Below, piece after piece: positions 961 to 14,751 of a stretch of DNA of 14,765 bases. The notes beneath the pieces are model-generated. The model searched no databases. It was not told the DNA's origin and was given only the letters and a program-made list of their open reading frames with translations. The DNA lies in the NCBI GenBank assembly GCA_013329175.1, contig DUKR01000077.1, positions 1 through 14,765 of the forward strand. Direction: 5' to 3'. Position numbers and translations under genes: made by a program. How positions within the stretch are numbered: position 1 is the first letter of the stretch; the number at the start of each line of letters is the position of its first letter. The stretch is from Candidatus Woesearchaeota archaeon (lineage in GTDB: Archaea > Nanobdellota > Nanobdellia > Woesearchaeales > UBA11716).

Positions 961-1329
961 TCACTTTTTTTCACTGTGCAGATTAATATATTTTTCGGTG
1001 GCCAAGAAAATAAAAAAAAGTATCTGTTAATAAATAAACATATTAAGTATTAAATTTAATGCCGCATTGATAAAAAAATAAATATAAAAAATAAGATTTC
1101 CATTTATAAATACTAAACCTTATTAGTTATAGCGCTTATCTAGATAACATGGAACACTTATTTAAAATAAAACTAGATATATTATTATTTAATAAAAATA
1201 ATTATTAATTAACCAAAAAAGCTAGCGTATTTATTAATGAACGTTTTTTATTAATATTATTTAGTATAACTAAAAAATCAAAAACCTTAAATAGTAATTA
1301 TAATAATAGATAGATAAATTTACTAACAA
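961..1329. promoter_or_regulatory. Divergent, extremely A/T-rich intergenic control region. It has TATA-like boxes about 27 nt upstream of both flanking start codons. It carries a perfect 12-bp palindrome TTATCTAGATAA (1136-1147). TAGATA recurs at 1141, 1174, 1307 and 1311. TTATTAAT occurs three times (1203-1210, 1231-1238, 1248-1255).
   Basis: Read directly from the sequence. The stretch AATTATAATAATAG at 1296-1309 is centred about 27 nt before the ATG at 1330. The stretch TTAATATATTTT at 983-994 (read on the minus strand) is centred about 27 nt before the ATG at 960. This spacing matches archaeal TATA-box/BRE architecture and leaderless transcripts. Confidence 0.4.
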
Positions 1330-1872
1330 ATGAGTAAAAAAATATCCACTTACACCATTGCAGGGCTCTTTACCCATGATTTCTCCAGAAGATATTATCT
1401 TAAAGAGATGGCTGATGCCCTTGGAAAACCTCATCAGACCCTCAAGCCCTATATCGCTGAGCTTGTGAAGCAAAGCATACTTATGGAGGAGAAGCGTGGG
1501 AATCTTCTCGAATACACACTCAACACAGGAAGTCCGTTGGTGGTAGCGTACTTGGCCATCGCAGAGCAAGAGCAAGCGTTAGAGCAAGCGAAAAAGGAGG
1601 GCTTCCTTGTTGAGCTGTTCTCTCTTGGAAGGGAGATGAAGGGGGCGATCATCGCCGCACCCATAGACAAAGAGCGATGGCACGTGGTGCATGTCGGGGG
1701 TGGGGTAATCAATAGGGAACACCCCCGATTTTCTTTTTCTCACTATGGGCAATTTGAGGAGATTCCCTTGGAGGAACTGAAAGGGCTCTATCGCGTTCAC
1801 GTGATATTCAGGGGAGTTGAAGAGGTTGTCAGCGAGTTTGTAAGGAGGTATGCACTGCATGGAATCGCCTAA
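1330..1872 (+). CDS. Hypothetical protein of 180 aa. The N-terminus looks like a winged helix-turn-helix (MADALGKPHQTLKPYIAELVKQSILMEEKRGNLLEY). The C-terminal roughly 90 aa are an unknown domain. I propose it as a candidate transcriptional regulator of the downstream operon.
   Basis: Intact ORF with probable leaderless start. The N-terminal residue pattern resembles MarR/ArsR-type wHTH recognition helix plus wing (inference from memory, not searched). The stop lies 14 nt inside the next gene. Confidence 0.5.
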   Translation: MSKKISTYTIAGLFTHDFSRRYYLKEMADALGKPHQTLKPYIAELVKQSILMEEKRGNLLEYTLNTGSPLVVAYLAIAEQEQALEQAKKEGFLVELFSLGREMKGAIIAAPIDKERWHVVHVGGGVINREHPRFSFSHYGQFEEIPLEELKGLYRVHVIFRGVEEVVSEFVRRYALHGIA

Positions 1873-3316
1873 GGATGAACGCAGAAAGGCAATGCCTGCT
1901 GTAACCTTCCTGCTGCTCATGGCGCTGGCCTTCATCGCAACGGTGCCAGAGCTATCTCTTGCTGCCACTGATGACGGATTGCTTGGAGTGATTGAGCCCA
2001 TCAGCAACCTTTTTGGGCCTATCATTGAACAGCTGAATTCAGTATGGGGGGGAAGTCCGGACGACTCAGCAATCTTTGTTGCCAAATTCGTGCTCTGGAT
2101 ACTTTTGTTTGCTTTACTCTACTACCCCTCAAACATGATTTTCAAGGATGCTGGCAAGGGAGTCAAGGTAGCCATTCCTTTTGTGCTTGCGCTGCTGGGC
2201 ACTGCGCTGATGCCTGCAGAGATCCTCATCAACGTCATGCAGACCTATGCGCTTGCCGGAGCTTTAATCCTGTGGATAATACCGATAGCCGGGACATGGT
2301 TCCTCATGCACAGGGTGCCGCAGGAGGGTGCATGGAAATTTTTACGCCTCATCCTTTACATCATCATCATTTACCTGTTGATGAACATTAGTGAATCAAT
2401 TACTTTCATGCTTGGCGATCTGCCTGAGTGGCTAAGCTATCTTAATCTTGTCATCGGCATCGTCACCATTATGTTCCTCAAGGAGTTGCTTACTATTTTC
2501 AGAGGTTCTGAAGCAGGGGGGGATGGAGGAAGTGGGGGTGGCGGCCTCTTTAACTGGTGGAAGAAAAAAATACCTTCCAGCCCTCAGGCCTTACCAGATG
2601 AAGTTGCAACGGCCCTCCAGGGAGCACAGAAGGCAGAGAAGCTGAGCAAAAAAGAGCAATATCTGCTCCAAGAAATCGAAAATCTTGAAAAACGGGAGAT
2701 TACCAAAACCGAAATGATAATTAATGATATCAACAAAATTGAGTCGGCTTTGCGAACTGGAAAACTAGATGAGCCTGTCAAGACAACCCTTGACAGTATG
2801 GCACGCTACTACAATGAAACAAGAACCATTGAGGATTATATTGAGCGTGAATTTAATCAGGTTCTAAACGATCTTGAACAGGAATATCAAGCGTTACGTC
2901 CACAGAAAGATCTTGCTAAGAGATTAATCAAAGTTGCCAACATAAAATTCCCCTTGAAGGCAGAAAAAGTCAAAAGGTACATTTCCACTATCAATAAGGA
3001 TATCACTAATTATATTCGCCAAATAAGAGAAAAAATAGAACTATATCAAGGAAAGCTAAAACGCCAGTTATCCCTCTTTAGGCAATTCATGCAGCTGGCA
3101 TATCAGCAACTTAATGGATTTGGCAATAGGGGTGCGGCACTAAGCTATCTCAATGATGCAAAAACTACAATGAATCTCATTCATGCTGACTTAGAAGGCA
3201 AGTTAAAGCCACTTACTGAGAAAATAAAAAATGACGTAGGAGGGGTTATCAGAAAGATTAAAGCGATGGAAAATGGAGACAAGAAGCTATTGCTAGGTAA
3301 AATAAACAGGTTTTGA
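1859..3316 (+). CDS. Exported polytopic membrane protein of about 485 aa. It has a Sec signal peptide (cleavage likely after SLAA), about 5 TM helices, a Gly-rich linker (GSEAGGDGGSGGGG) and a roughly 230-aa cytoplasmic coiled-coil tail. It is a paralog of 3328-4329.
   Basis: The ORF track gives 1850. I prefer the ATG at 1859 because a perfect SD AAGGAGGT (1842-1849) lies 9 nt upstream. The ATG at 1892 is also possible. Hydrophobic segments: FVAKFVLWILLFALLYY, VAIPFVLALLGTALMP, ALAGALILWIIPIAGTWFLM, LRLILYIIIIYLLMNI, LVIGIVTIMFL. The C-terminal half is charged and heptad-like with no Pro or Gly runs. Confidence 0.7.
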   Translation: MESPKDERRKAMPAVTFLLLMALAFIATVPELSLAATDDGLLGVIEPISNLFGPIIEQLNSVWGGSPDDSAIFVAKFVLWILLFALLYYPSNMIFKDAGKGVKVAIPFVLALLGTALMPAEILINVMQTYALAGALILWIIPIAGTWFLMHRVPQEGAWKFLRLILYIIIIYLLMNISESITFMLGDLPEWLSYLNLVIGIVTIMFLKELLTIFRGSEAGGDGGSGGGGLFNWWKKKIPSSPQALPDEVATALQGAQKAEKLSKKEQYLLQEIENLEKREITKTEMIINDINKIESALRTGKLDEPVKTTLDSMARYYNETRTIEDYIEREFNQVLNDLEQEYQALRPQKDLAKRLIKVANIKFPLKAEKVKRYISTINKDITNYIRQIREKIELYQGKLKRQLSLFRQFMQLAYQQLNGFGNRGAALSYLNDAKTTMNLIHADLEGKLKPLTEKIKNDVGGVIRKIKAMENGDKKLLLGKINRF

Positions 3317-3327
3317 GGTGCAGATAG

Positions 3328-4329
3328 ATGGTCATGGGAAAAAGCAAATCGAAAAAAAGAGGAGCAGCCAAATGGATAAGAATTGTAGCTGGAACAACTA
3401 TCTTATTCACTCTGTCAATTCCTTCAGCACTTGCCGCAACAGGCGACGTATCCTATGACTTAGGCTCAGTGCTCTACCGCATCATGGGCTGGCTCTTTGT
3501 TGATTTCTCTGACTCTGCCGGAAGCCTGCTCTATGAATTCTATCTCAAGTTTGCCTTGTTTGTGCTGGTCTTCGCCCTCTATTTCTTTGCAGCTACCAAA
3601 GCATTCAAGGGCGATGAGCACAAGAGCATCAGGATAACCATTGCCTTTGTTTTTGCCCTGCTCAGCGTTGCGCTCATTCCTCATCCCATCCTTGCTTCCA
3701 TTGCAGAGGGCTACAAGCTTGTCGGAACCGTTGTTTTCTTCCTGATTCCCGCTATTGGCTTTATCCTGCTCAACCATTATGCCTTTTCAGTCAAGGCGCG
3801 GGCGTACTATGGGGTGAAGGCCATCGTCTACTATGTCATTGCCATGCTCTTCCATAACATGTCAGCAGCAGGAGCTTCCTTTGCCTTTAATTTTCAGCAG
3901 CTTTCAAGCTTTGCTGAAGTCATTTTCATCTTTCTTGCAATTGCCAATCTCTTCATGGCGCTTACCTCAGGCGACGGAGTGGAGGGAGAGGAGGAAGGTG
4001 CTGGAAAATATGATGGCAGCAGCCCCATCTGGAAAGCGCTTGGAGGGCATGAGGATGGCCATGATGATAAAAAGGTGAAGCATGCGGAAAAGGAGGATGT
4101 TGACCATGAAGATGAGGCAAAGAAAAGAAAGCGGGAAGAGGCAGCTGAAGACTTAAAGACGCTGGAAGGCATCAGGGAAAGGATACGCTCGGAATTTAAC
4201 CATCTGGTGACTGCTCTGGATGAAACTGAAAATGACGCAAGAGAAAGGCTCAAGAGGCTTGCAGAGCGCATACGTGAGCTTGATGCAATACAGCGGAGGA
4301 TTAATGCATTGTCCCAGCAGCAAGCATGA
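3328..4329 (+). CDS. Exported polytopic membrane protein of 333 aa. It has a Sec signal peptide (ALAA|TGD), 4-5 TM helices, an acidic His/Asp/Glu/Lys-rich linker and a short cytoplasmic coiled-coil tail. It is a paralog of 1859-3316.
   Basis: SD GAGGTG at 3315-3320 lies 7 nt before the ATG and overlaps the upstream stop. Alignable blocks with the upstream gene: SDSAGSLLYEFYLKFALFVLVFALYFF vs DDSAIFVAKFVLWILLFALLYY, and FKGDEHKSIRITIAFVFALLSVALIPHPIL vs FKDAGKGVKVAIPFVLALLGTALMPAEIL. Both have an LIP..G...L.H motif after TM3. Confidence 0.7.
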   Translation: MVMGKSKSKKRGAAKWIRIVAGTTILFTLSIPSALAATGDVSYDLGSVLYRIMGWLFVDFSDSAGSLLYEFYLKFALFVLVFALYFFAATKAFKGDEHKSIRITIAFVFALLSVALIPHPILASIAEGYKLVGTVVFFLIPAIGFILLNHYAFSVKARAYYGVKAIVYYVIAMLFHNMSAAGASFAFNFQQLSSFAEVIFIFLAIANLFMALTSGDGVEGEEEGAGKYDGSSPIWKALGGHEDGHDDKKVKHAEKEDVDHEDEAKKRKREEAAEDLKTLEGIRERIRSEFNHLVTALDETENDARERLKRLAERIRELDAIQRRINALSQQQA

Positions 4330-4871
4330 CCATGGCTCAGGCAACCCTTTCTCAGGTGCGCAAGGCGTATGAGCAGCTTGTACTATCCATACTCAACGAG
4401 CTAAGAAAGACTATCGAGGATCTCCAGAGGGAAAGAAAAGAGCTTGAGTACAGCCTAAAAGCAGTACTTGAAAAAATCCACGATGAAAAGTTGCAGGAGA
4501 TTTTTAATAACCTCAGTGAGGAAAAAAAAAACGAACATCGAGCAAAAGTTGAGAATTTCAAAAAGCTTCGAAGCACAGGCATAGCAGTAAGCAGGCAGGA
4601 TGAGAAAACTGCTCACACCATCCTTCGTGAAATAAGCCAAAATATAGTTGTCCTTGAGAGCATGGTAACCACGTTGACGGGCATCATGAGGGAATCAAAA
4701 AACCTGTACCATCTTGATACCAATGCATTGTATCAGGGCATTTTAGGTGTCCATGAATCCCTCAAGAAAAGAGAAAAAGTTATCCTCCAAGAGATTGAGC
4801 CGCATGTAACAAGCTTTTTTAATTACTTGGAGCAGGCAAAGATAGAGTTGCTTGCTCAGGTTAATTCCTAA
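4326..4871 (+). CDS. Soluble coiled-coil protein of 181 aa. It is a paralog of the N-terminal domain of 4885-6429.
   Basis: ATGA overlap with the upstream gene indicates translational coupling. Charged heptad-like sequence. It shares blocks with the next gene: SQVRKAYEQLVLSILNELRKTIEDLQRERKEL vs AQLKKKYEELALFIFNQIEQTITELLDERKLL, and NLYHLDTNALYQGILGVHESL vs ALYNLNTNELYSKIMLVHDAI. Confidence 0.65.
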   Translation: MTMAQATLSQVRKAYEQLVLSILNELRKTIEDLQRERKELEYSLKAVLEKIHDEKLQEIFNNLSEEKKNEHRAKVENFKKLRSTGIAVSRQDEKTAHTILREISQNIVVLESMVTTLTGIMRESKNLYHLDTNALYQGILGVHESLKKREKVILQEIEPHVTSFFNYLEQAKIELLAQVNS

Positions 4872-4884
4872 AGGAAACACTATC

Positions 4885-6429
4885 ATGGCAGACCAGCAAC
4901 TGGCACAGCTCAAGAAAAAGTATGAGGAGCTTGCTCTCTTTATCTTTAATCAGATTGAGCAAACGATAACGGAATTACTGGATGAGCGAAAGCTTTTGCA
5001 GCAGAAGGGAAAGGCTGGCATAACCATGCTGCATGTAAACAAAAAGGCAGAAGCGATTGCTTTGAAGGCAAAAATAGCTCTTTCTGCTGATATTCAACAG
5101 CGTTATGATGCTGCTTTGCAGCAATTTGATGCACTTTTGAATAAGGCAACCATTCTTGAGCATCAGGAAGAGCACGCAGTTAAAACCATTCTGCAAAGGC
5201 TTGATACTGAGATTGCTGAACTTCAGGCGTTGGCTAGTCAGGTCACTGCAGCCCATCAAACGAGACCTGCGTTGTATAACCTTAACACAAACGAGCTCTA
5301 TAGTAAAATTATGCTTGTCCATGATGCAATAACCAAGCAGCAGGAGCACGAGCAGAAGTTTAGAGCAGCAAGACAAGAATTTGAACAAGAGCTTGGCCAA
5401 AAAATTCATGAAATTGAAGCTATCCTGAGTGAGAAAGCTATTGCTACTATTGCAACTCCAGTAGTACAAGGTAATACTATTACTACGTCTCAGGGAAGTG
5501 TTCAACCATTAGCCATAGCTCCTGGAGGGCAAAGTGGAGTTATTGGACATGATGAAAAAGATTCAGTCGTGCAGACTGTAAAAATCGACCTGAACAATCT
5601 TGAGCATGCTGATAACATCATTCAATTCCAGCGCAGTGACAGGGAAGTTAGGAAAGCTTTTCAAGTGCTGGAAAAGAAAAGAATGGAAGGTCAGTTGCTG
5701 AAGGCAAAGAAAGCTATAAAGGCAGTCACCACTAAAATTAATATGTATGGACCAAAATACAACAGTGGAGAGTATAAACTGGCATTTATGACAAATGTTG
5801 TCGACCAGTATATGGAGTATATGTATGGGGTACTGTATAGCTATCTTCTTCATGTGGATGAAGCATCGGAATTTATTGCAACCTTATATAGCAGGCTGGA
5901 GACTATTGAAAGCACTAAGCTCACTAAATTTCAAAAAGAGAAAGTTGCAATTATTGCTCACCTCGTGAAGATTGCAGGAGAAACAGACGACAAAAGACCA
6001 GGAAACCTAGGAAAAAAAGGTAAAATTCCTCGGGAATTGCCTGCAAAGATTGATAGCTATGTTACTAATGAACTAAAGATTCTTGAACAAGATACACCAC
6101 CAGGCAGAATCCAAGTAGATATTGACAGGTTACAACTCTTAATTCTTCAGCTTGAAAAAAAACTAAAGAAAGCTATGCATTTAGCTGAACAAAGGATAAA
6201 AGCCTCTTACTTTGCATGGACAAAACGTGGCTATCAAGGGGCTGTAGGGCATCTGAATACCCTCAACATCCTTGTTGATGAGAAAATAAGGTTAGTGAAA
6301 CAAATGATGGATATTGAGCAGCAGATTAGCACAAAGCTTGAAAACCATATCTTCAATTATCTTAATGACAATAAAAAGCTAAAGGACCTTCAAAAGCTGC
6401 TAAGAAAGATACATCTTGGCGAAATTTAG
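4885..6429 (+). CDS. Coiled-coil protein of about 514 aa. The N-terminal roughly 190 aa are homologous to 4326-4871. A Thr/Gly/Gln-rich linker follows (ATPVVQGNTITTSQGSVQPLAIAPGGQSG), then a roughly 300-aa C-terminal domain of unknown function.
   Basis: The ORF track start at 4852 would overlap the upstream gene. The alignment with its paralog begins at MADQQ (ATG 4885), and AGGAAA lies 8 nt upstream, so 4885 is preferred. No TM segment. I recognise no family. Confidence 0.65.
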   Translation: MADQQLAQLKKKYEELALFIFNQIEQTITELLDERKLLQQKGKAGITMLHVNKKAEAIALKAKIALSADIQQRYDAALQQFDALLNKATILEHQEEHAVKTILQRLDTEIAELQALASQVTAAHQTRPALYNLNTNELYSKIMLVHDAITKQQEHEQKFRAARQEFEQELGQKIHEIEAILSEKAIATIATPVVQGNTITTSQGSVQPLAIAPGGQSGVIGHDEKDSVVQTVKIDLNNLEHADNIIQFQRSDREVRKAFQVLEKKRMEGQLLKAKKAIKAVTTKINMYGPKYNSGEYKLAFMTNVVDQYMEYMYGVLYSYLLHVDEASEFIATLYSRLETIESTKLTKFQKEKVAIIAHLVKIAGETDDKRPGNLGKKGKIPRELPAKIDSYVTNELKILEQDTPPGRIQVDIDRLQLLILQLEKKLKKAMHLAEQRIKASYFAWTKRGYQGAVGHLNTLNILVDEKIRLVKQMMDIEQQISTKLENHIFNYLNDNKKLKDLQKLLRKIHLGEI

Positions 6430-6435
6430 GTAACC

Positions 6436-7098
6436 TTATCGGGAAAGTTTTTTTTGAGTAATAGTAGCAGTGTATACAGGACCAGCTGACCGTGCTCCCG
6501 CTGCGCCAGTAACATAGCTTGGAATCAGTAAAGAGGAGGATGGATTATTAATGATCTCAGCAATCACTGCATTTAACTGGCTTACATTCTCTGGAAAGGG
6601 CTTGCTGGGGTCAACTTTTATAACTGCTGTGTTGCCTGCTGCATCTTGAAACATCTCTACGTTATCACCTAGTGGGACTATTGCATTAAGATACGTTTGA
6701 TCATTTGGACCTTTAATTAATTCTAGTTTAGGTCCAAGATTCTGAGCTGGACCAATTACTTGAACATAGTCAGCTGTTACCCTAAGAAAATCCGCTAAAT
6801 TATCCCTTCCTTCAACTGTGACATATTTACCTACCGTATTCCTTACTTTAAGAGCAGTGTTGTAGCCATCAGTTATAACATTCTCACCTAGCTTAGTAAC
6901 AGAGTTAGCAGCATCCCACTTATCCTCCCCATATTTAATAACACTACTTACTCCACTTACTATGTAAGGTAGGGAATAAAGGGCAAGGGCACCGGCAGCC
7001 ATAAATTTAATAATCTTGCCTGCCTTTCTTTTTGACTTTTGTGGTGCTATTAAATCTTGTAGAGTTTTGGACATTTCCATAGCAAATCCAGAAAGCAT
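6436..7098 (-). CDS. Membrane-anchored exported protein of 214-220 aa. It has a single N-terminal TM/signal anchor (IIKFMAAGALALYSLPYIVSGV) and an extracytoplasmic beta-rich domain. It sits immediately downstream of the SPFH gene.
   Basis: Intact ORF. A perfect archaeal TATA TTTATATA (minus-strand reading of 7105-7112) is centred about 27 nt upstream of the in-frame ATG at 7080 (MEMSKTL). The true start may therefore be 7080 with a leaderless mRNA, or the gene is co-transcribed with SPFH. I recognise no family; the position is analogous to NfeD partners of SPFH proteins. Confidence 0.55.
   Translation of the reverse strand: MLSGFAMEMSKTLQDLIAPQKSKRKAGKIIKFMAAGALALYSLPYIVSGVSSVIKYGEDKWDAANSVTKLGENVITDGYNTALKVRNTVGKYVTVEGRDNLADFLRVTADYVQVIGPAQNLGPKLELIKGPNDQTYLNAIVPLGDNVEMFQDAAGNTAVIKVDPSKPFPENVSQLNAVIAEIINNPSSSLLIPSYVTGAAGARSAGPVYTATITQKKLSR
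6448..6455 (+). terminator. Oligo-T tract (T8) 19 nt downstream of the stop of 4885-6429. It is a candidate archaeal intrinsic terminator. It lies inside the last codons of the convergent minus-strand gene.
   Basis: The T8 run is read directly. Archaeal RNA polymerase terminates at oligo-T tracts (established). The assignment of function here is inference. Confidence 0.3.
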
Positions 7099-7147
7099 GA
7101 CTAGTATATAAATCTTCCGATTTGTAACTATCAGTAAGTAGTTAATT

Positions 7148-8425
7148 TTACAGGTTTGTGGTTGTATTTTCTGCAGAATATATAGACTTTGTGGGTCTTA
7201 TAACACCCTTATTTGGACTCAGGTACGCCCCCAATTGGTTTGCAAGAGCATCAAGAACATTTCCCCCAAAATTTGTCATTTGCAAGTTTAATTTCTGCTC
7301 CTGGATCATACTGATAAGGGCTGCATACCGCCCGCCATCCTTTGCTATTTCAACACTAATCTTTTGTATTGTCTCTGCCTGTGCTTCTGCTAACTTTTTC
7401 ATTGCATTAGCATCTGCTTCCCCTTTTGTCATGATTGCATAAGCAGTGGCATCGGCATCTTTTTTTTGTGCTTCATATGTTGCTTGTGCAGCATATTTTA
7501 GCGCAGCGGCTTTAGTGACTTCTTCATCTGGAGTAATACGTTGAAAGCTCACTGAAAGAATTTCCAGTCCTAAATTGTTATATGTTTGGTTAAGCCCACT
7601 GATCATCTGATTACCAACGTTATGCTCAGCATTAATCTCATCAAACGTATGGCTCCCAATGTATTTTCTTACAAGTGCGCTTGCTTCAGCCCAGACCTGC
7701 CCTATAGGGTCGTTTGCTCCGTACAGCGCCTGCCTGACTGATTTGTAATCATCACCGATCTTTATGCTAATAACAGCATCAATGGTAGTTGAAAGCCCAT
7801 CCTTAGTTACAATGCCTTCCTCTTGCTGAAGGTCAATCTGGGTGATGCTGGTGTCAACCACATCCCACTGGGTAAAAATTGGAACCCTTAAGTGCAGCCC
7901 AGCTCCATGCATTTTTTGCTCACGCTCATTCCAAAGCATGGCAAGCCCTTTAGGAATATTCCACACAGACCATGCGTTTTCGCTGTTGTCTTGAGGAGTT
8001 GGGCTATATCCAGACAGATATTTTCCTACCTTTTGGTAGCCTCCAACTGATTGCACCACACTGTGCGCTCCATAGCCAAGAATAGCAAACGGAGCTATTG
8101 CAGAAACTGTGGAACCAATAAAGGGAAGATAGGAAGCAGGAGCAGTGGCCAACGGAGAAACTTTCCATACTGCCCATGTAGCAAGCGCCCTTAGCACAGG
8201 ATTCTGTTTCTGGGGCCTGCCAAGGGTTTTTGGTATTGCCCGCTGGTCAGGCTCAAGCATTGCTGCTGGTGAATATATGCTTTGCCAACCGGGCATTAGG
8301 CTGTTAAAATAATTTTTATGAATAAGAAGCTTTTCTGCAATAGAATCGACTACGGCTTCTAAATCACCCGCTTCAGAAGTAGTCGCCTCACCTATTCCAA
8401 CTGGTATGTACTCATCGTCTGCCAT
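7148..8425 (-). CDS. SPFH/band-7 (stomatin/prohibitin/flotillin/HflKC) domain protein of 425 aa. It has a roughly 170-aa N-terminal extension that includes a hydrophobic hairpin-like segment. The C-terminus is an Ala/Lys/Glu-rich helix.
   Basis: Core SPFH signature blocks are present: GLHLRVPIFTQWDVVDTSITQIDL, VTKDGLSTTIDAVISIKIGD, ALVRKYIGSHTFDEI and LGLEILSVSFQRITPDEEV, followed by AQATYEAQKKDADATAYAIMTKGEADANA. This is typical of the family from established knowledge. A TATA-like TTTAAATA (minus-strand reading of 8496-8503) lies upstream. Confidence 0.85.
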   Translation of the reverse strand: MADDEYIPVGIGEATTSEAGDLEAVVDSIAEKLLIHKNYFNSLMPGWQSIYSPAAMLEPDQRAIPKTLGRPQKQNPVLRALATWAVWKVSPLATAPASYLPFIGSTVSAIAPFAILGYGAHSVVQSVGGYQKVGKYLSGYSPTPQDNSENAWSVWNIPKGLAMLWNEREQKMHGAGLHLRVPIFTQWDVVDTSITQIDLQQEEGIVTKDGLSTTIDAVISIKIGDDYKSVRQALYGANDPIGQVWAEASALVRKYIGSHTFDEINAEHNVGNQMISGLNQTYNNLGLEILSVSFQRITPDEEVTKAAALKYAAQATYEAQKKDADATAYAIMTKGEADANAMKKLAEAQAETIQKISVEIAKDGGRYAALISMIQEQKLNLQMTNFGGNVLDALANQLGAYLSPNKGVIRPTKSIYSAENTTTNL

Positions 8426-8539
8426 GCCGCATCACATTTGTGTATAGCCTTCCCAGGCATCATTATGTTTACTGCAAGATGGAATAGGCAGCACTATTTA
8501 AATATTATTATTTTTACTACTTTAGGAGGGTTAAAAAGT

Positions 8540-9208: not shown

Positions 9209-9256
9209 TGGGAGACCATGTGCATTTCCCTCAAAACGTTTGACATCAGCCACGAG

Positions 9257-9505
9257 ATGAGGTTTAAGGAGTATATCTCTGACAGGCCGGCAGTCATCAG
9301 GGCAGTCAAGGTTCTTGGCAACTGTGACCTCATGCTGCACATCGCAACAAAGGATGCTTCAGAGCTTCACAAGACTATCAAAGGCATCTATAAGGCATTT
9401 GTTGATATCATCACAGGCTACCAGGCATGGGGAGCCTACAAAGAGCACTTTTTCACAATCTTTCCTGCTGTTGTTTCTGACAAAGAAAATGCAGAGCAGA
9501 AGTGA
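9257..9505 (+). CDS. Small protein of 82 aa (95 aa from 9218). It has a possible beta-alpha-beta ACT/RAM-like pattern (AVIRAVKVLGNCDLMLHIATKDASELHKTIKGIY). It may be co-transcribed with pth2.
   Basis: The amphipathic periodicity is protein-like. It has the same orientation as pth2 and gpmA, with only 48 nt and no TATA box before pth2. The resemblance to Lrp/AsnC ligand-binding domains is weak and from memory only. Confidence 0.35.
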   Translation: MRFKEYISDRPAVIRAVKVLGNCDLMLHIATKDASELHKTIKGIYKAFVDIITGYQAWGAYKEHFFTIFPAVVSDKENAEQK

Positions 9506-10714: not shown

Positions 10715-12124
10715 GGATATTCATGCCGCCCATTGGCATCGTAATCGTTCACTATCATGAAGCTTTTTCTTCATTCTCCTCCGCCTCAATCCATGCGTTC
10801 CATGGCGGCTCATTCCAGAAAAACGGGCCATTACCTGGGGCTTCCTGCCACAAGCGTCGCTTCTGTTCTCTCTGTTTTTGCCAGACGTAACATTGCTATT
10901 TACAATTCCGTCATGCACTGTATAGTCCCTCATCCTTCATACACGCTCGTGCAGCGCACTGACTTTTGCCAATGGCTGCGTGCATTTCTGTCTTCAGCGT
11001 TTTTCACCCGTTACAGCAGAAAACCTGTGTGCCGTCAATTACGCGAGCATTGGCAGTGTTGTGGTGGCGAAGGTCGTGGGGGGTTGTCCCTTACGGGGGT
11101 GCGACCTCATCGTCCCGCTTCATCTCCATGCGAGCCGACGGCACACCAATGGTTTTCTGCTCGAGTGAAAAACGCTAAGGAAAACGCCAAGGCCTTCATC
11201 ACCTCCAAAGAGAAATGCAGCAACAATCGCTTCAGGAAAGTGAACAATTATGGAGAAATGCATTGATATTGTGACACCGCGATGGATTGCGTCTGCTGAC
11301 ACCTCTCCACGCATTTCGCCTATTGAATAATTGCGGCTACTGTCACATAAATACCGCAATTATCCATACTTGGCATCCCGACAAACCCTAAGCTCCGCCT
11401 CTTCGCCTGCATCAACGACAGGAGACAGGAAGAGGCAACAATGGCATCCTGCGCTCCCCCGCATCACGAGGGCTGATGTGAAGGAACTCAAGCGCTGGGT
11501 GCTAAGGCAGGGGCATGCCCGCAACATCTTCGCCACCGCAACCAGATGCATGGGCTTCTGTAACGATGAATCAAGAAGTATAGGCAGCAGGCCATCGCCT
11601 ATTGCGTACTCCTTCACTTTCTTGAAAAGCCCTGCCCGGGAGGAAGGATACAGGCTCGCTGGATAGCCATGAGTTAAGGCTTTGAGGGATATTGGCAGGC
11701 AGGCTCGTGGAAAGCTGGCATTCCCAAAAAACTCAGTAGAAAAAAAGGCATTAGCCATGCCTCCCGTCGCATCCACACTCAATTCGTAACTCCCTTCTTT
11801 TCGTTTCAGGCAATCCACTCAATGCACAATCCGAGGTAAACAAAAAAGCCTCAGCTGGCCAGCAGGGCATGTGTTGCAGCCATTGCCGCAGTGTAGCGCG
11901 CTGCACCGTCAGGCATGGAGGATGGGCGCTGGCAGCAGTGCACGACGGAATTTCCATCATCAGGATTTGCAGCACAAACAGGGGAGGGAGGAAAAATAAA
12001 GGGATGGGATGAGAAAGAAGCCACAGGCAATGAGCTTTTAGGGAATGCCTTTTCGGGAGCGATGCCCATCACAGTTACAAAGAGGCAGGCAACTTCATAA
12101 AGGTGAAGTACTACCCTATTGCCC
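10715..12124. other. A 1.4-kb region with no credible protein-coding ORF on either strand. It could be a decayed pseudogene remnant or a long structured ncRNA.
   Basis: All six frames are broken into ORFs of at most 169 aa with junk-like Cys/Arg/Ser/His-rich translations that overlap each other on both strands. The region is not A/T-rich like true intergenic DNA here. Confidence 0.3.
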
Positions 12125-13609: not shown

Positions 13610-14751
13610 GGTGTTGCTGCTCCTGCTTTTTCTTCCTCATATATCTGCACCAAGGTAGTGAAGATAGCAAGGGCAATAGGCCCTAAGAATATGCCAACAA
13701 AGCCAAAGAGATGTAATCCTCCAAGGACTCCTATAAGGACAAGGATGGGATGCACCTTCCCCCTCTCGCCGATAAGCTTTGGCCGCAGGATATTGTCTAT
13801 AGTTGAGACAATCAGCCAGCAGTAGAGAAGAAAAAATACCCCCTTGGTGAGAAGCACAGCATTTCCTGTCGTCGCTGCCGTGAATATCATGAGCAGCGCT
13901 ACAGGAAGCCAGACTATTGCGGTCCCCAGAAAGGGGATTAGGGCAAAGAATGCCATCACGATGCCCCACAGAATCGGCGAAGGGACTCCAAAGAGGAAGA
14001 AGCCTAATGCTCCCAGTGCACCCTGGATAGCTGCAATAAGCAGATGGCCAAAAAACACGGCATAGGTGATGCTCTTGAAGTTGTCAATAATCCGCTTGCG
14101 ATGGCTTTTCTTGAACGGGAGGAGTTCCTCCAGCTGTGCCATGATGCGCTTGCCGTCACGCAGGAGATAGAACATGGTGAAGAAGGCTATGAATGCCCTC
14201 AAAACAACGGCAGGAATTGAGAAGATGATGTCTGAGACTTTGTTTGCGATAGTAGTGCTTATCCTCTGCGATGCTGTGTCAATATAGTAGAGCACCTCAG
14301 GCTCGGTGAGAATATCCCGCAGCCTGTTATAGAGTGAGCAGATAAAGCCTGTTGTTGTGCATTCAGATTCAAAAAGGCCACCGATGACAAGCTTCTGCCT
14401 GACAAAGACATAGCTTGCATATGCCTCAGTCCTGATGGCATTAAGCGAGAGGATGATAGGAATTGCAACAAGCAGCAGGATGAGAAAGACAATGAGCAGC
14501 GCCGATACTGTTTCGAACCTCACCTTAGGGGTGAGCCACGCGTGGAGCGGATAGGATATGAATGCTATCAATGCTCCTGTAAGCATAGCCACGATGTAGG
14601 GCTTTGCAATGAAGAAAGCAAGGACGCAGACAGCAAGGCTTATTGCTATGAGGATGTATTCTCCCAACTTGTCAAGATTGATAGCCCCAATCATTCTACC
14701 CCAAATTGCCGTGGAGGAAACGTATATAAATGTTTGTGACCAGAGTGACAT
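13606..14751 (-). CDS. AI-2E family (UPF0118/PerM-like) membrane transporter of 381 aa with about 8 TM helices.
   Basis: Polytopic hydrophobic profile. The C-terminal family blocks ILWGIVMAFFALIPFLGTAIVWLPVALLMIF and HPILVLIGVLGGLHLFGFVGIFLGPIALAI are present. Its stop overlaps the deoA start (ATGA at 13606-13609). Confidence 0.78.
   Translation of the reverse strand: MSLWSQTFIYVSSTAIWGRMIGAINLDKLGEYILIAISLAVCVLAFFIAKPYIVAMLTGALIAFISYPLHAWLTPKVRFETVSALLIVFLILLLVAIPIILSLNAIRTEAYASYVFVRQKLVIGGLFESECTTTGFICSLYNRLRDILTEPEVLYYIDTASQRISTTIANKVSDIIFSIPAVVLRAFIAFFTMFYLLRDGKRIMAQLEELLPFKKSHRKRIIDNFKSITYAVFFGHLLIAAIQGALGALGFFLFGVPSPILWGIVMAFFALIPFLGTAIVWLPVALLMIFTAATTGNAVLLTKGVFFLLYCWLIVSTIDNILRPKLIGERGKVHPILVLIGVLGGLHLFGFVGIFLGPIALAIFTTLVQIYEEEKAGAATP

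Follow-up and report, generated by a model that had tools for sequence, protein, structure and literature searches.

To our knowledge, the structures of SPFH cages are understood in bacteria and eukaryotes, most of their clients are not known, and archaeal SPFH proteins other than the Pyrococcus stomatin have barely been studied. Two types of long C-terminal helix, CC1 and CC2, provide the wall and cap elements of these cages. Several described systems come close to the locus reported here. E. coli HflK (7vhp, 7wi3, 9cz2) consists of a tail of about 80-100 aa, a single transmembrane segment (TM), the SPFH domain, CC1, CC2 and a C-terminal segment. QmcA/YbbK, which falls in SPFH1 of Hinderhofer et al. 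2009, has an NfeD partner, YbbJ (8z5g). The archaeon Pyrococcus horikoshii carries the STOPP operon PH1510-PH1511 (3bk6, 2rpb), and eukaryotic stomatin (9z7u, 9oh9) is inserted by an intramembrane hairpin. In the classic operon the NfeD gene is usually located upstream and the SPFH gene after it. Short-form NfeD proteins are 140-150 aa long and begin with three hydrophobic stretches, and the NfeD homologues YuaF and YqiJ, of very low sequence similarity, were identified from structure (PMC2636767).

We analysed a contig of 14,765 nucleotides (hereafter the window) from a groundwater Candidatus Woesearchaeota genome (DPANN). Two genes on the same strand, separated by 49 nt, were the subject of this work:

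7148..8425, minus strand: SPFH/Band-7 gene, 425 aa (ORF, Pfam Band_7, AF2, Foldseek)
6436..7098, minus strand: orphan single-pass membrane protein, 220 aa (ORF, no relatives)

Both ORFs are real, and their translations match exactly the sequences quoted in the original prediction, which was made from the DNA sequence alone. The pair is convergent with a cluster of five genes, p180-m488-m333-cc181-cc525, encoding a wHTH-like protein, a pair of signal-peptide/5-TM/coiled-coil paralogues and a pair of soluble coiled-coil paralogues. The stop codons of the two units are 6 nt apart, and this convergent arrangement excludes co-transcription. The window contains no second Band_7 protein, no paralogue of the SPFH protein and no tRNA, and no FtsH or other protease is encoded in the 14.8-kb contig. 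The ORF-poor stretch at 10715-12124 gave no Rfam match at the gathering threshold (the best, sR52, was at chance level with an E-value of 0.77) and no Pfam match for its ORFs. A scan for bacterial sigma-70 promoters and terminators returned shuffle-level scores, with models that have no relevance to archaea.

A highly diverged member of the SPFH superfamily

7526..7906, minus strand: SPFH α/β core, aa 174-300 (Pfam Band_7; pLDDT 90-97)
7226..7525, minus strand: two long C-terminal helices, CC1 (aa 301-362) and CC2 (aa 366-400) (AF2, Foldseek)

A profile search confirmed the presence of a Band_7 domain (PF01145) in the 425-aa protein, with a score of 72.8 bits (cutoff 23.6) and an E-value of 4.6e-20. 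The match spans aa 167-326, corresponding to profile positions 15-174 of 176. The AF2 model has a mean pLDDT of 75, rising above 90 at aa 170-360, and Foldseek aligned it with the protomers of stomatin, HflK/C, QmcA, erlin, prohibitin and flotillin at E-values of 1e-13 to 1e-9. These alignments cover 300-350 columns, that is, whole cage protomers (9z7u, 9oh9, 7vhq, 8z5g, 9vvg, 8rrh and 9bq2). Conserved residues of the SPFH core include G176, P182, T207, D209, R253, G257 and G286, and the start of CC1 is about 25 aa shorter in the alignment than in the nearest relatives.

The sequence is far less ordinary than the fold. A word-index search of 5.8 billion clusters recovered only the protein itself. 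Exhaustive HMMER against 1.84 billion representative proteins produced 309 matches at E<=1e-3, all of them distant SPFH cores, the best non-self match being 29% identical (E 1.4e-11). IMG/VR contained no relatives. The PDB sequences matched include HflK (E 6e-6) and QmcA (E 1.5e-5), and the score against bacterial flotillin FloT (NF058507) was 18.5 bits, below the equivalog cutoff of 700. The core had been described as canonical; this holds for the fold and not for the sequence. We conclude that the 425-aa protein is a genuine member of the SPFH superfamily, extremely diverged and restricted to its lineage. Rather than a new kind of system, it is an atypical representative of a familiar family, and it illustrates how far this family can drift, at no more than 29% identity among 1.84 billion representatives, while keeping the whole cage-protomer fold. 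Its similarity to known protomers suggests that it could assemble into a ring or cage on the membrane. The strain copies of the protein are 100% identical and therefore uninformative about constraint.

A defence or phage identity of the locus was considered and rejected: PADLOC gave no defence-system match for the SPFH protein, the 220-aa protein or the upstream 266-aa protein, and the only PHROGs match, of the SPFH protein to phrog_200 (E 1.2e-10), is confined to the generic SPFH core region.

Comparison with described SPFH proteins

E. coli HflK resembles the 425-aa protein in its order of segments, in being its best PDB sequence match (E 6e-6) and best NCBIfam model (hflK, 2e-9), and in its fold (Foldseek E ~1e-12). 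The orientation of HflK, N-terminus in and SPFH domain out, is also the one suggested by the positive-inside charges of our protein. However, the scores of 37.3 bits against TIGR01933 (cutoff 159.4) and 24.8 bits against PRK10930 (cutoff 660) are below the HflK equivalog cutoffs, and the protein is therefore not an HflK orthologue. It also differs from HflK by a tail unrelated in sequence, a 37-aa insertion (or linker) near β1, a shorter CC1, and the absence of an adjacent HflC-like SPFH gene and of FtsH in the window. The original prediction had contrasted its N-terminus with a short single TM of HflK/C-type proteins. In the HflK model (419 positions), hits with a TM starting at residue 6-9 begin to align at positions 79-97, which leaves about 78 pre-TM positions, so that this contrast fails. 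The locus presents an HflK-like tail with no HflC, FtsH or NfeD nearby.

The nearest sequences (P0003, P0007, P0010 and P0012) belong to the QmcA group, P0012 matching QmcA itself at 2e-34, and QmcA shares the protomer fold as well as a small membrane protein encoded beside it. Yet identity to this clade is only about 25-29%, the archaeal members fetched (294-340 aa) lack the long N-tail, and the neighbour, unlike YbbJ, has no NfeD signature, one TM instead of three, a downstream position and its own putative promoter. The P. horikoshii operon offers an archaeal parallel, with an SPFH protein encoded at a membrane locus of two genes and a superposable core (3bk6; Foldseek E 2.5e-8, 22% identity), but the two are barely related in sequence (E 3e-3) and neither a ClpP-type protease nor an OB-fold partner was detected at our locus. 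Eukaryotic stomatin (9z7u, 9oh9) gave the top Foldseek matches (E 1e-13) and also has a cytoplasmic N-terminal region ahead of its hydrophobic segment; the hairpin proposed in the original prediction mirrors that of stomatin. In contrast to stomatin, TM-grade hydrophobicity is confined to the second half of the 48-aa stretch, the N-terminal part shows no sequence similarity, and the charges better fit a single-pass anchor.

The N-terminal region of the SPFH protein

8201..8425, minus strand: acidic N-terminal tail, aa 1-75 (charge, AF2, exhaustive search)
8144..8200, minus strand: weakly hydrophobic helix, aa 76-94, PVLRALATWAVWKVSPLAT (Hessa scale, AF2)
8066..8137, minus strand: membrane anchor, aa ~97-120 (Kyte-Doolittle, Hessa, alignment)
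7907..8065, minus strand: β1/insertion region, aa 121-173 (profile scores, MAFFT, AF2)

The tail has a net charge of -8 over aa 1-59. AF2 predicted one helix in it (aa 22-43, pLDDT ~67), the remainder staying below 50, and aa 1-105 were covered by none of the 150 listed matches of the exhaustive HMMER search (1.84 billion representatives). Behind the tail, a long hairpin-like hydrophobic segment had been proposed. On the Hessa scale, only aa 102-120 are of TM grade, with a sum of 4.5, whereas aa 77-95 reach 8.0 over 19 aa (the TMs of m488 and m333 range from -0.8 to 4.7), which gives a hairpin little support. The helix modelled at aa 76-94 (pLDDT ~60) is probably interfacial rather than transmembrane. 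The segment at ~97-120, with a Kyte-Doolittle peak of 1.5 at aa 99-120, corresponds in alignments to the TM at the N-terminus of short SPFH relatives, although its hydrophobicity is marginal. Flanking residues bring a charge of +5 ahead of this anchor (aa 60-96), compared with 0 to +2 behind it.

For aa 121-173, we favour strand β1 at ~120-135 (HSVVQSVGGYQKVGKY) followed by a 37-aa insertion (137-173). The MAFFT alignment places the strand and the insertion in this way, and fusing aa 118-136 to 174-end increased the family profile score by 6.5-7 bits, against 1.7-3 bits when aa 150-173 were retained. AF2 modelled strands at 113-126 (pLDDT 81-91) and a low-confidence loop at 131-158; the model is of low confidence over the whole N-terminal 170 aa save for 111-130, where the MAFFT alignment supplied may have introduced a bias. 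The alternative is a 30-aa linker followed by β1 at 152-168, and three relatives instead align their own β1 with aa 152-173.

The N-terminus had been presented as an extension of 170 aa. It is indeed atypically long and free of homologues, but that length resulted from the start of the Pfam envelope, whose first residue falls on profile position 15; the part preceding the TM measures about 96 aa. Judging from the alignments, long N-terminal tails are not unique to this protein: at least 80 aa precede the position aligned to query residue 152 in 21 of the 149 nearest matches, at least 100 aa in 8 and at least 150 aa in 3. Such an extension is not common among archaeal stomatins of the nearest clade, which are short (~294-340 aa).

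The downstream membrane protein

6937..7014, minus strand: signal-anchor TM, aa 29-54 (hydropathy; Hessa sum 3.9)
6613..6852, minus strand: predicted β-rich ectodomain, aa 83-162 (single-sequence AF2)
7105..7112, minus strand: TTTATATA box, 24 nt before internal ATG 7080 (sequence; putative leaderless-type promoter)

The sole match to the 220-aa protein among 5.8 billion clusters was a 99%-identical copy. No family was found in Pfam, NCBIfam, PADLOC or PHROGs at E<=0.1, and nothing among PDB sequences at E<=10. The GC3 of the ORF, 0.27 against a GC of 0.40, points to genuine coding. As anticipated, the protein is membrane-anchored, with one hydrophobic anchor at aa 29-54 whose basic N-flank (net charge +4 before the TM, -1 behind) indicates an N-in, C-out orientation. 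Single-sequence AF2 predicted 8 strands at aa 83-162 with a pLDDT of only 42. A Foldseek search of the PDB with this model returned nothing at E<=1e-3; the best matches, small-HSP β-sandwiches with a TM score of 0.27, are not meaningful.

The TTTATATA box reported ahead of the internal ATG is present. Its only other copy in the window (14723-14730, minus strand) lies 28 nt before the in-frame ATG 14694 of an AI-2E transporter gene, and p180 has a TATA-to-ATG spacing identical to that of the 220-aa gene (TTATAATA at 1298-1305, ATG 1330). The recurrence of this spacing makes the leaderless promoter suggested in the original prediction plausible. From these sequence elements, the gene probably has a leaderless promoter of its own, and its true start is likely ATG 7080, giving a protein of 214 aa.

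Proposed arrangement

We consider it fairly probable that the locus encodes a diverged, lineage-restricted SPFH cage protein and a separate orphan type-II membrane protein. The acidic tail of about 75 aa would be cytoplasmic and mostly disordered. It would be followed by the interfacial helix 76-94, one marginal TM at ~97-120, the SPFH domain and CC1/CC2. By analogy with HflK/C, QmcA, stomatin, erlin, prohibitin and flotillin, CC1 and CC2 would drive multimerization into a ring or dome, which could fence off a patch of membrane together with its proteins. The positive-inside rule weakly suggests an HflK/C-like topology with the tail inside and the SPFH domain outside, although the charge difference is small and the TM marginal; should helix 76-94 also insert, the SPFH domain would be cytoplasmic. 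With the SPFH domain outside, the cage and the ectodomain of the 220-aa protein would share the outer face of the membrane. The latter, of 214-220 aa, would be a separate type-II (N-in) single-pass protein with a predicted β-rich ectodomain. The adjacency of the two genes is the one indication that this protein could be a client or a partner of the cage. The SPFH protein can serve as an outlier for delimiting the essentials of the SPFH fold; by itself it raises no new question.

Alternative interpretations and relation to the coiled-coil cluster

8495..8526, minus strand: AT-rich promoter region, TTTAAATA at 8495-8502 and motif CCTAAAGTAGTAAAAATAATAATA at 8503-8526 (sequence; putative function)
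8431..8435, minus strand: Shine-Dalgarno-like GTGAT, 5 nt ahead of ATG 8425 (sequence)
1285..1316, plus strand: promoter region of p180, first gene of the convergent coiled-coil cluster (motif common with the SPFH promoter)

If translation of the SPFH gene started at M44 or M56, the N-tail would be an annotation artefact and the protein an ordinary one with a short N-terminus. This would fit with aa 1-105 being uncovered by any listed homologue, with the low AF2 confidence at aa 1-75 and with AT-rich TATA-like strings 5' of M44. However, at least 55 codons are open 5' of M56, and the frame closes only at a stop 2 codons before ATG 8425. The GTGAT lies 5 nt before 8425 (compare AGGAGGT ahead of m488 and GAGGTG ahead of m333), whereas no Shine-Dalgarno-like element precedes M44 or M56. 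The best TATA box (TTTAAATA) is located upstream of 8425, and the gene callers of three repositories all give 425 aa. GTGAT and the upstream stop thus favour the annotated start at 8425, and we regard an artefact as highly improbable. An ordinary stomatin-NfeD operon also seems to us very doubtful. The 220-aa protein would then be an NfeD diverged past recognition, acting as a β-domain partner inside the SPFH cage. Its gene has the orientation of the SPFH gene and begins 49 nt after it, and behind the membrane anchor some 80 aa are predicted to be all-β; YuaF and YqiJ provide a precedent for NfeD proteins recognised from structure (PMC2636767), and a QmcA-YbbJ complex is known (8z5g). Yet no Pfam or NCBIfam NfeD match was found at E<=0.1, in agreement with the original view that the neighbour does not look like NfeD, and Foldseek detected no OB-fold or NfeD, albeit with a poor model. 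The protein has one TM, not three hydrophobic stretches, and 220 aa, not 140-150; its gene follows the SPFH gene, in reverse of the classic arrangement with NfeD first, and has a TATA box of its own. The idea that NfeD usually occupies the downstream slot conflicts with this order (PMC2636767) and found no rule to rest on in the nearest SPFH clade: at 61 loci (query left out of the alignment), NfeD did not recur among 81 same-strand neighbours. The ORFs of 130-198 aa upstream of relatives were discarded as NfeD candidates, being heterogeneous (one example is a shikimate kinase), and the 266-aa protein upstream of our SPFH gene has no NfeD (PF01957), other Pfam or NCBIfam match at E<=0.1. The 220-aa protein is therefore not detectably an NfeD homologue by sequence or architecture. 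With this result, and with archaeal relatives of the nearest clade being short, the observation withstands the refutation proposed in the original prediction.

We then considered whether the separate SPFH and type-II proteins belong with the convergent genes. The SPFH promoter region (8495-8526, minus strand) and that of p180 (1285-1316, plus strand) are identical at 25 of 32 nt, a value reached in 0 of 300 dinucleotide shuffles, and within the window the 24-nt motif occurs at these two promoters only. The lowest GC3 values in the window are those of the 220-aa gene (0.27), cc525 (0.37) and the SPFH gene (0.37), as compared to 0.52-0.60 for housekeeping genes. The shared motif and the low GC3 are weak hints that tie the SPFH pair to the cluster. 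These genes and p180-m488-m333-cc181-cc525 could form one co-regulated membrane-organisation or cell-surface module, and p180, with weak wHTH-type matches in PADLOC (PDC-M05A 7.5e-4, CasR 6e-3), could act as its regulator through an operator common to both promoters. In line with this, sample-to-sample differences are limited to cc181, cc525 and the 220-aa gene, and the three proteins searched (SPFH, 220-aa and m488, the last recovering only itself among 5.8 billion clusters) are all ORFans. On the other hand, the units are convergent and not co-transcribed, the motif is AT-rich and defined from just two copies, the SPFH gene lacks the strain variability of cc525, and none of these genes occurs in another genome, so that conserved linkage cannot be shown. 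We regard a single module as unlikely. Its extended form, a module specific to a DPANN episymbiont lineage in which the SPFH cage organises a membrane patch around a fast-diversifying coiled-coil apparatus, co-regulated by the shared motif, is clearly less probable still. If the module existed, its role might be, for example, host attachment or conflict with viruses. Finally, the low-GC segment 1285-8526 could be a mobile or viral island with the SPFH gene as cargo: an imperfect 32-nt inverted repeat brackets exactly the two convergent units, GC and GC3 are below those of the housekeeping flank, the same three proteins are ORFans, and the SPFH protein matches phrog_200 (1.2e-10). But Pfam, PHROGs and PADLOC revealed no integrase, transposase, capsid or terminase, tRNA is absent, IMG/VR holds no relative, and the phrog_200 match concerns the generic SPFH core only. 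The repeat is more simply explained by the two promoters at which it lies, and we find an island extremely unlikely.

The neighbouring genes gave only weak coiled-coil-type matches in PADLOC (E>=7.5e-4). Among metagenome contigs, cc525 matched one identical 1.5-kb fragment and no other homologue. A diversity-generating retroelement acting on cc525 was rejected, since the window contains no repeat of 5086-5720 and no RT domain, and the substitution pattern is not AAY-codon-like. All differences between samples fall within cc181, cc525 and the 220-aa gene. The stronger lead is the adjoining coiled-coil gene cc525, which holds almost all strain-level variation of the contig (43 of 46 differences), with a pN/pS of 2.2 that is not significant.

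A diverged SPFH protein with a conserved fold

The complete 14.8-kb contig comes from a Candidatus Woesearchaeota (DPANN) archaeon of groundwater, and assemblies of the same contig were also obtained from four other samples. The source metagenomes are SRR2177951, SRR2177954, SRR5855240 and JGI 3300009296. Its central part is arranged as follows.

1330-6429, plus strand: coiled-coil cluster p180, m488, m333, cc181 and cc525, converging with the three minus-strand genes below
6436-7098, minus strand: 220-aa ORF
7148-8425, minus strand: SPFH gene, ORF of 425 aa
8540-9340, minus strand: 266-aa ORF (222-237 aa according to other gene callers)

The 425-aa protein is named 'SPFH domain-containing protein [Candidatus Woesearchaeota archaeon]' at NCBI. 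It matched Pfam Band_7 over aa 167-326 (E 4.6e-20, 72.8 bits); this match, the peptide strings and the coordinates of the original prediction all proved correct when compared with the ORFs and Pfam. An AF2 model built from 70 sequences reached a pLDDT above 90 over aa 170-360, with helices 301-362 and 366-400 coming after an α/β core. In Foldseek, this model aligned over 300-350 columns with full-length cage protomers: human stomatin, HflK/C, QmcA, erlin, prohibitin and flotillin (E 1e-13 to 1e-9). The SPFH core had been described as canonical, which holds for the fold but not for the sequence: in an exhaustive HMMER search of 1.84 billion cluster representatives no more than 309 proteins reached E<=1e-3, and the closest non-self match had 29% identity (E 1.4e-11). 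None of the 150 HMMER matches listed extended N-terminal of residue 106, leaving aa 1-105 uncovered. In a word-index search of 5.8 billion clusters the protein retrieved only itself, and no relative was detected in IMG/VR. Its nearest neighbours in sequence fall within the widespread QmcA/prokaryotic-stomatin group (one of them, P0012, matched QmcA 8z5g at 2e-34), and the protein itself matched HflK (6e-6) and QmcA (1.5e-5) equally weakly and fell far below every NCBIfam equivalog cutoff. It is a real, strongly diverged member of a known family.

The N-terminal region

A single 170-aa N-terminal extension had been proposed. The N-terminal region is indeed long, though it does not form one unit, and the real tail ahead of the transmembrane (TM) segment is about 96 aa. 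Residues 1-75 are acidic (net charge -8 over 1-59) and mostly of low confidence in AF2, with one helix at 22-43. They are followed by a weakly hydrophobic helix at 76-94, whose Hessa-scale sum of 8.0 is not of TM grade, and by a marginal TM segment at about 97-120 with a sum of 4.5. On the same scale the TM segment of the 220-aa protein scored 3.9, and those of m488 and m333 from -0.8 to 4.7. The anchor at about 97-120 aligned with the N-terminal TM segment of short SPFH relatives.

The stretch between this anchor and the core can be read in two ways. We favour HSVVQSVGGYQKVGKY (aa 120-135) as the first SPFH strand, with 137-173 as a lineage-specific insertion. Joining 118-136 straight to 174-end improved the match to two family profiles by 6.5-7 bits, keeping 150-173 instead gained only 1.7-3 bits, and AF2 placed strands at 113-126 with a pLDDT of 81-91. 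Alternatively, judging from sequence alignment, the first strand may be WSVWNIPKGLAMLWNER (aa 152-168), which three individual matches aligned with their own first strand; residues 121-151 would then be a linker. The tail ahead of the TM segment is about 96 aa under either reading, and the protein carries an HflK-like tail together with a small lineage-specific insertion or linker.

Tails of about this size are uncommon without being unique. Among the 149 nearest matches, a median of 25 residues preceded the position aligned to residue 152; at least 80 aa were present in 21 of them, at least 100 aa in eight and at least 150 aa in three. In the nearest SPFH clade, the archaeal proteins are short (294-340 aa). 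The contrast drawn originally with 'the short single TM of HflK/C-type proteins' fails for HflK, because about 78 positions precede the TM segment in the E. coli-type HflK model.

The annotated start of the SPFH gene is probably right. Its reading frame closes 2 codons 5' of this start, a Shine-Dalgarno-like GTGAT lies 5 nt ahead of it and a TTTAAATA box is found 70 nt 5'; the corresponding Shine-Dalgarno elements of internal genes in the neighbouring operon are AGGAGGT and GAGGTG.

The charges flanking the anchor (N-side +5, C-side 0 to +2) favour a tail-in, SPFH-out orientation, as in HflK/C. If helix 76-94 were also inserted, the SPFH domain would lie in the cytoplasm, as in stomatin. Beyond the fold and the gene arrangement seen at this locus, our best reading is an inferred assembly in which the SPFH protein would form a membrane-anchored ring or cage through its two long C-terminal helices, CC1 and CC2, and the 220-aa neighbour might be a client of this cage on the same membrane face.

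The neighbour is an orphan membrane protein without an NfeD match

As predicted, the 220-aa protein is signal-anchored: it has a single hydrophobic segment at aa 29-54, preceded by a basic flank (+4). Its predicted topology is N-in, with an ectodomain of about 165 aa that is β-rich in a model of pLDDT 42; Foldseek with this model gave no meaningful match. The protein had no match in Pfam, NCBIfam, PADLOC or PHROGs at E<=0.1, and hence none to NfeD, and no match among PDB sequences at E<=10. Short NfeD proteins are 140-150 aa long, with three N-terminal hydrophobic stretches and a soluble all-β OB-fold domain; their genes are typically upstream of the SPFH gene, and an NfeD-type partner is present for 229 of 353 SPFH1 members (Hinderhofer et al. 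2009, PMC2636767). The 220-aa protein differs from them in length, number of TM segments and sequence test. We also surveyed the nearest SPFH clade at 80 GTDB loci, of which 61 provided 81 same-strand flanking ORFs for a Pfam scan. These neighbours were heterogeneous and NfeD was absent from the recurring families, so that a missing NfeD is not in itself unusual here. The protein had been placed in an NfeD slot while not resembling NfeD; the lack of resemblance is borne out by the family searches, and the slot is no rule among the 61 nearest-clade loci. The neighbour of the SPFH gene is an orphan membrane protein.

A box upstream of an internal ATG had been taken to suggest a leaderless promoter of this gene. 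TTTATATA is present at 7105-7112 (minus strand), with 24 nt between the box and ATG 7080, the codon for Met7 in the called ORF. Its sole other occurrence in the window (14723-14730, minus strand) lies 28 nt ahead of an in-frame ATG within the called AI-2E transporter ORF, and p180, which leads the plus-strand cluster, has TTATAATA 24 nt ahead of its ATG. This similar spacing makes a leaderless promoter plausible for the 220-aa gene, as far as sequence can tell, and its true start is probably 7080. Both TTTATATA boxes lie within or just 5' of the called ORF starts (14694-14751 and 7080-7098, both minus strand). Their position 24-28 nt before internal in-frame ATGs suggests that the mRNAs are leaderless and that the starts were called too far upstream, that of the AI-2E transporter included, with a true start at about 14694.

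Relationship with the coiled-coil cluster

The cluster is headed by p180, a wHTH-like protein of 180 aa, followed by two paralogous pairs at 1850-4329 and 4326-6429 (plus strand). The m333/m488 pair (E 1e-15) shares a signal peptide, about 5 TM segments, a Gly-rich linker and a C-terminal coiled coil; cc181 and cc525 (E 4.5e-18) are soluble coiled-coil proteins with their first 150 aa in common. No homologue of m488 was retrieved by word-index search (ORFan), and among metagenome contigs cc525 had one identical fragment and no other relative. The stop codons of cc525 and the convergent 220-aa gene are 6 nt apart (6429-6436); their transcripts must therefore overlap 3' or each end within the coding region of the other gene.

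The original prediction joined the SPFH pair and this cluster in one larger membrane-organisation locus. Within the window, the 24-nt motif CCTWAARTAGTAAWWATAATAATA was found only at the predicted p180 and SPFH promoters. These promoters (1285-1316, plus strand; 8495-8526, minus strand) are identical at 25 of 32 positions, a match reached by none of 300 dinucleotide shuffles, and form an imperfect 32-nt inverted repeat that brackets exactly both convergent units. The repeat may act as an operator or promoter common to both units, or mark the ends of an island. The lowest GC3 values in the window are those of the 220-aa gene (0.27), cc525 and SPFH (both 0.37); housekeeping genes have 0.52-0.60. 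The common motif and the common low GC3 hint at one functional locus, a hypothesis to be held lightly: the two units converge, and the motif, itself AT-rich, was derived from two copies.

Variation among assemblies and remaining regions

The window was compared with the four other assemblies (99.6-99.97% identical; the comparison with the longest copy spanned 13.6 kb). All 46 differences fell within 4531-6915, chiefly at 5086-5720, within cc525. This gene (4852-6429, plus strand) held 43 of them, at 5086-6259, almost all non-synonymous and including a 9-nt in-frame deletion; cc181 held one and the 220-aa gene two (D62N and N73K). No difference was found in SPFH, housekeeping genes or non-coding stretches of the compared assemblies. 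The pN/pS of 2.2 was not significant (p 0.06-0.15), and variants were shared across samples in a mosaic pattern. Neither a DGR-type template repeat nor a reverse transcriptase was found in the window.

The genes to the right of the 266-aa ORF are ordinary ones: an AsnC-like regulator, Pth2, a phosphoglycerate-mutase-type phosphatase, an AMP/thymidine-phosphorylase-type enzyme and the AI-2E transporter. The AsnC-like ORF (plus strand) and the longest ORF of the 266-aa gene (minus strand) share 123 nt, at 9218-9340. Shorter ORFs are given by other callers (82-95 aa for the AsnC-like one), and the two are thus probably adjacent divergent genes whose true ORFs are shorter. A 1.4-kb stretch at 10715-12124 (GC 0.515) holds no convincing gene, its ORFs all being short, overlapping and without a Pfam match; it contained no tRNA and no Rfam family at gathering score, the best match, sR52, being at chance level (E 0.77). 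This stretch showed zero differences across the compared samples and may represent a gene in decay or an RNA not yet described.
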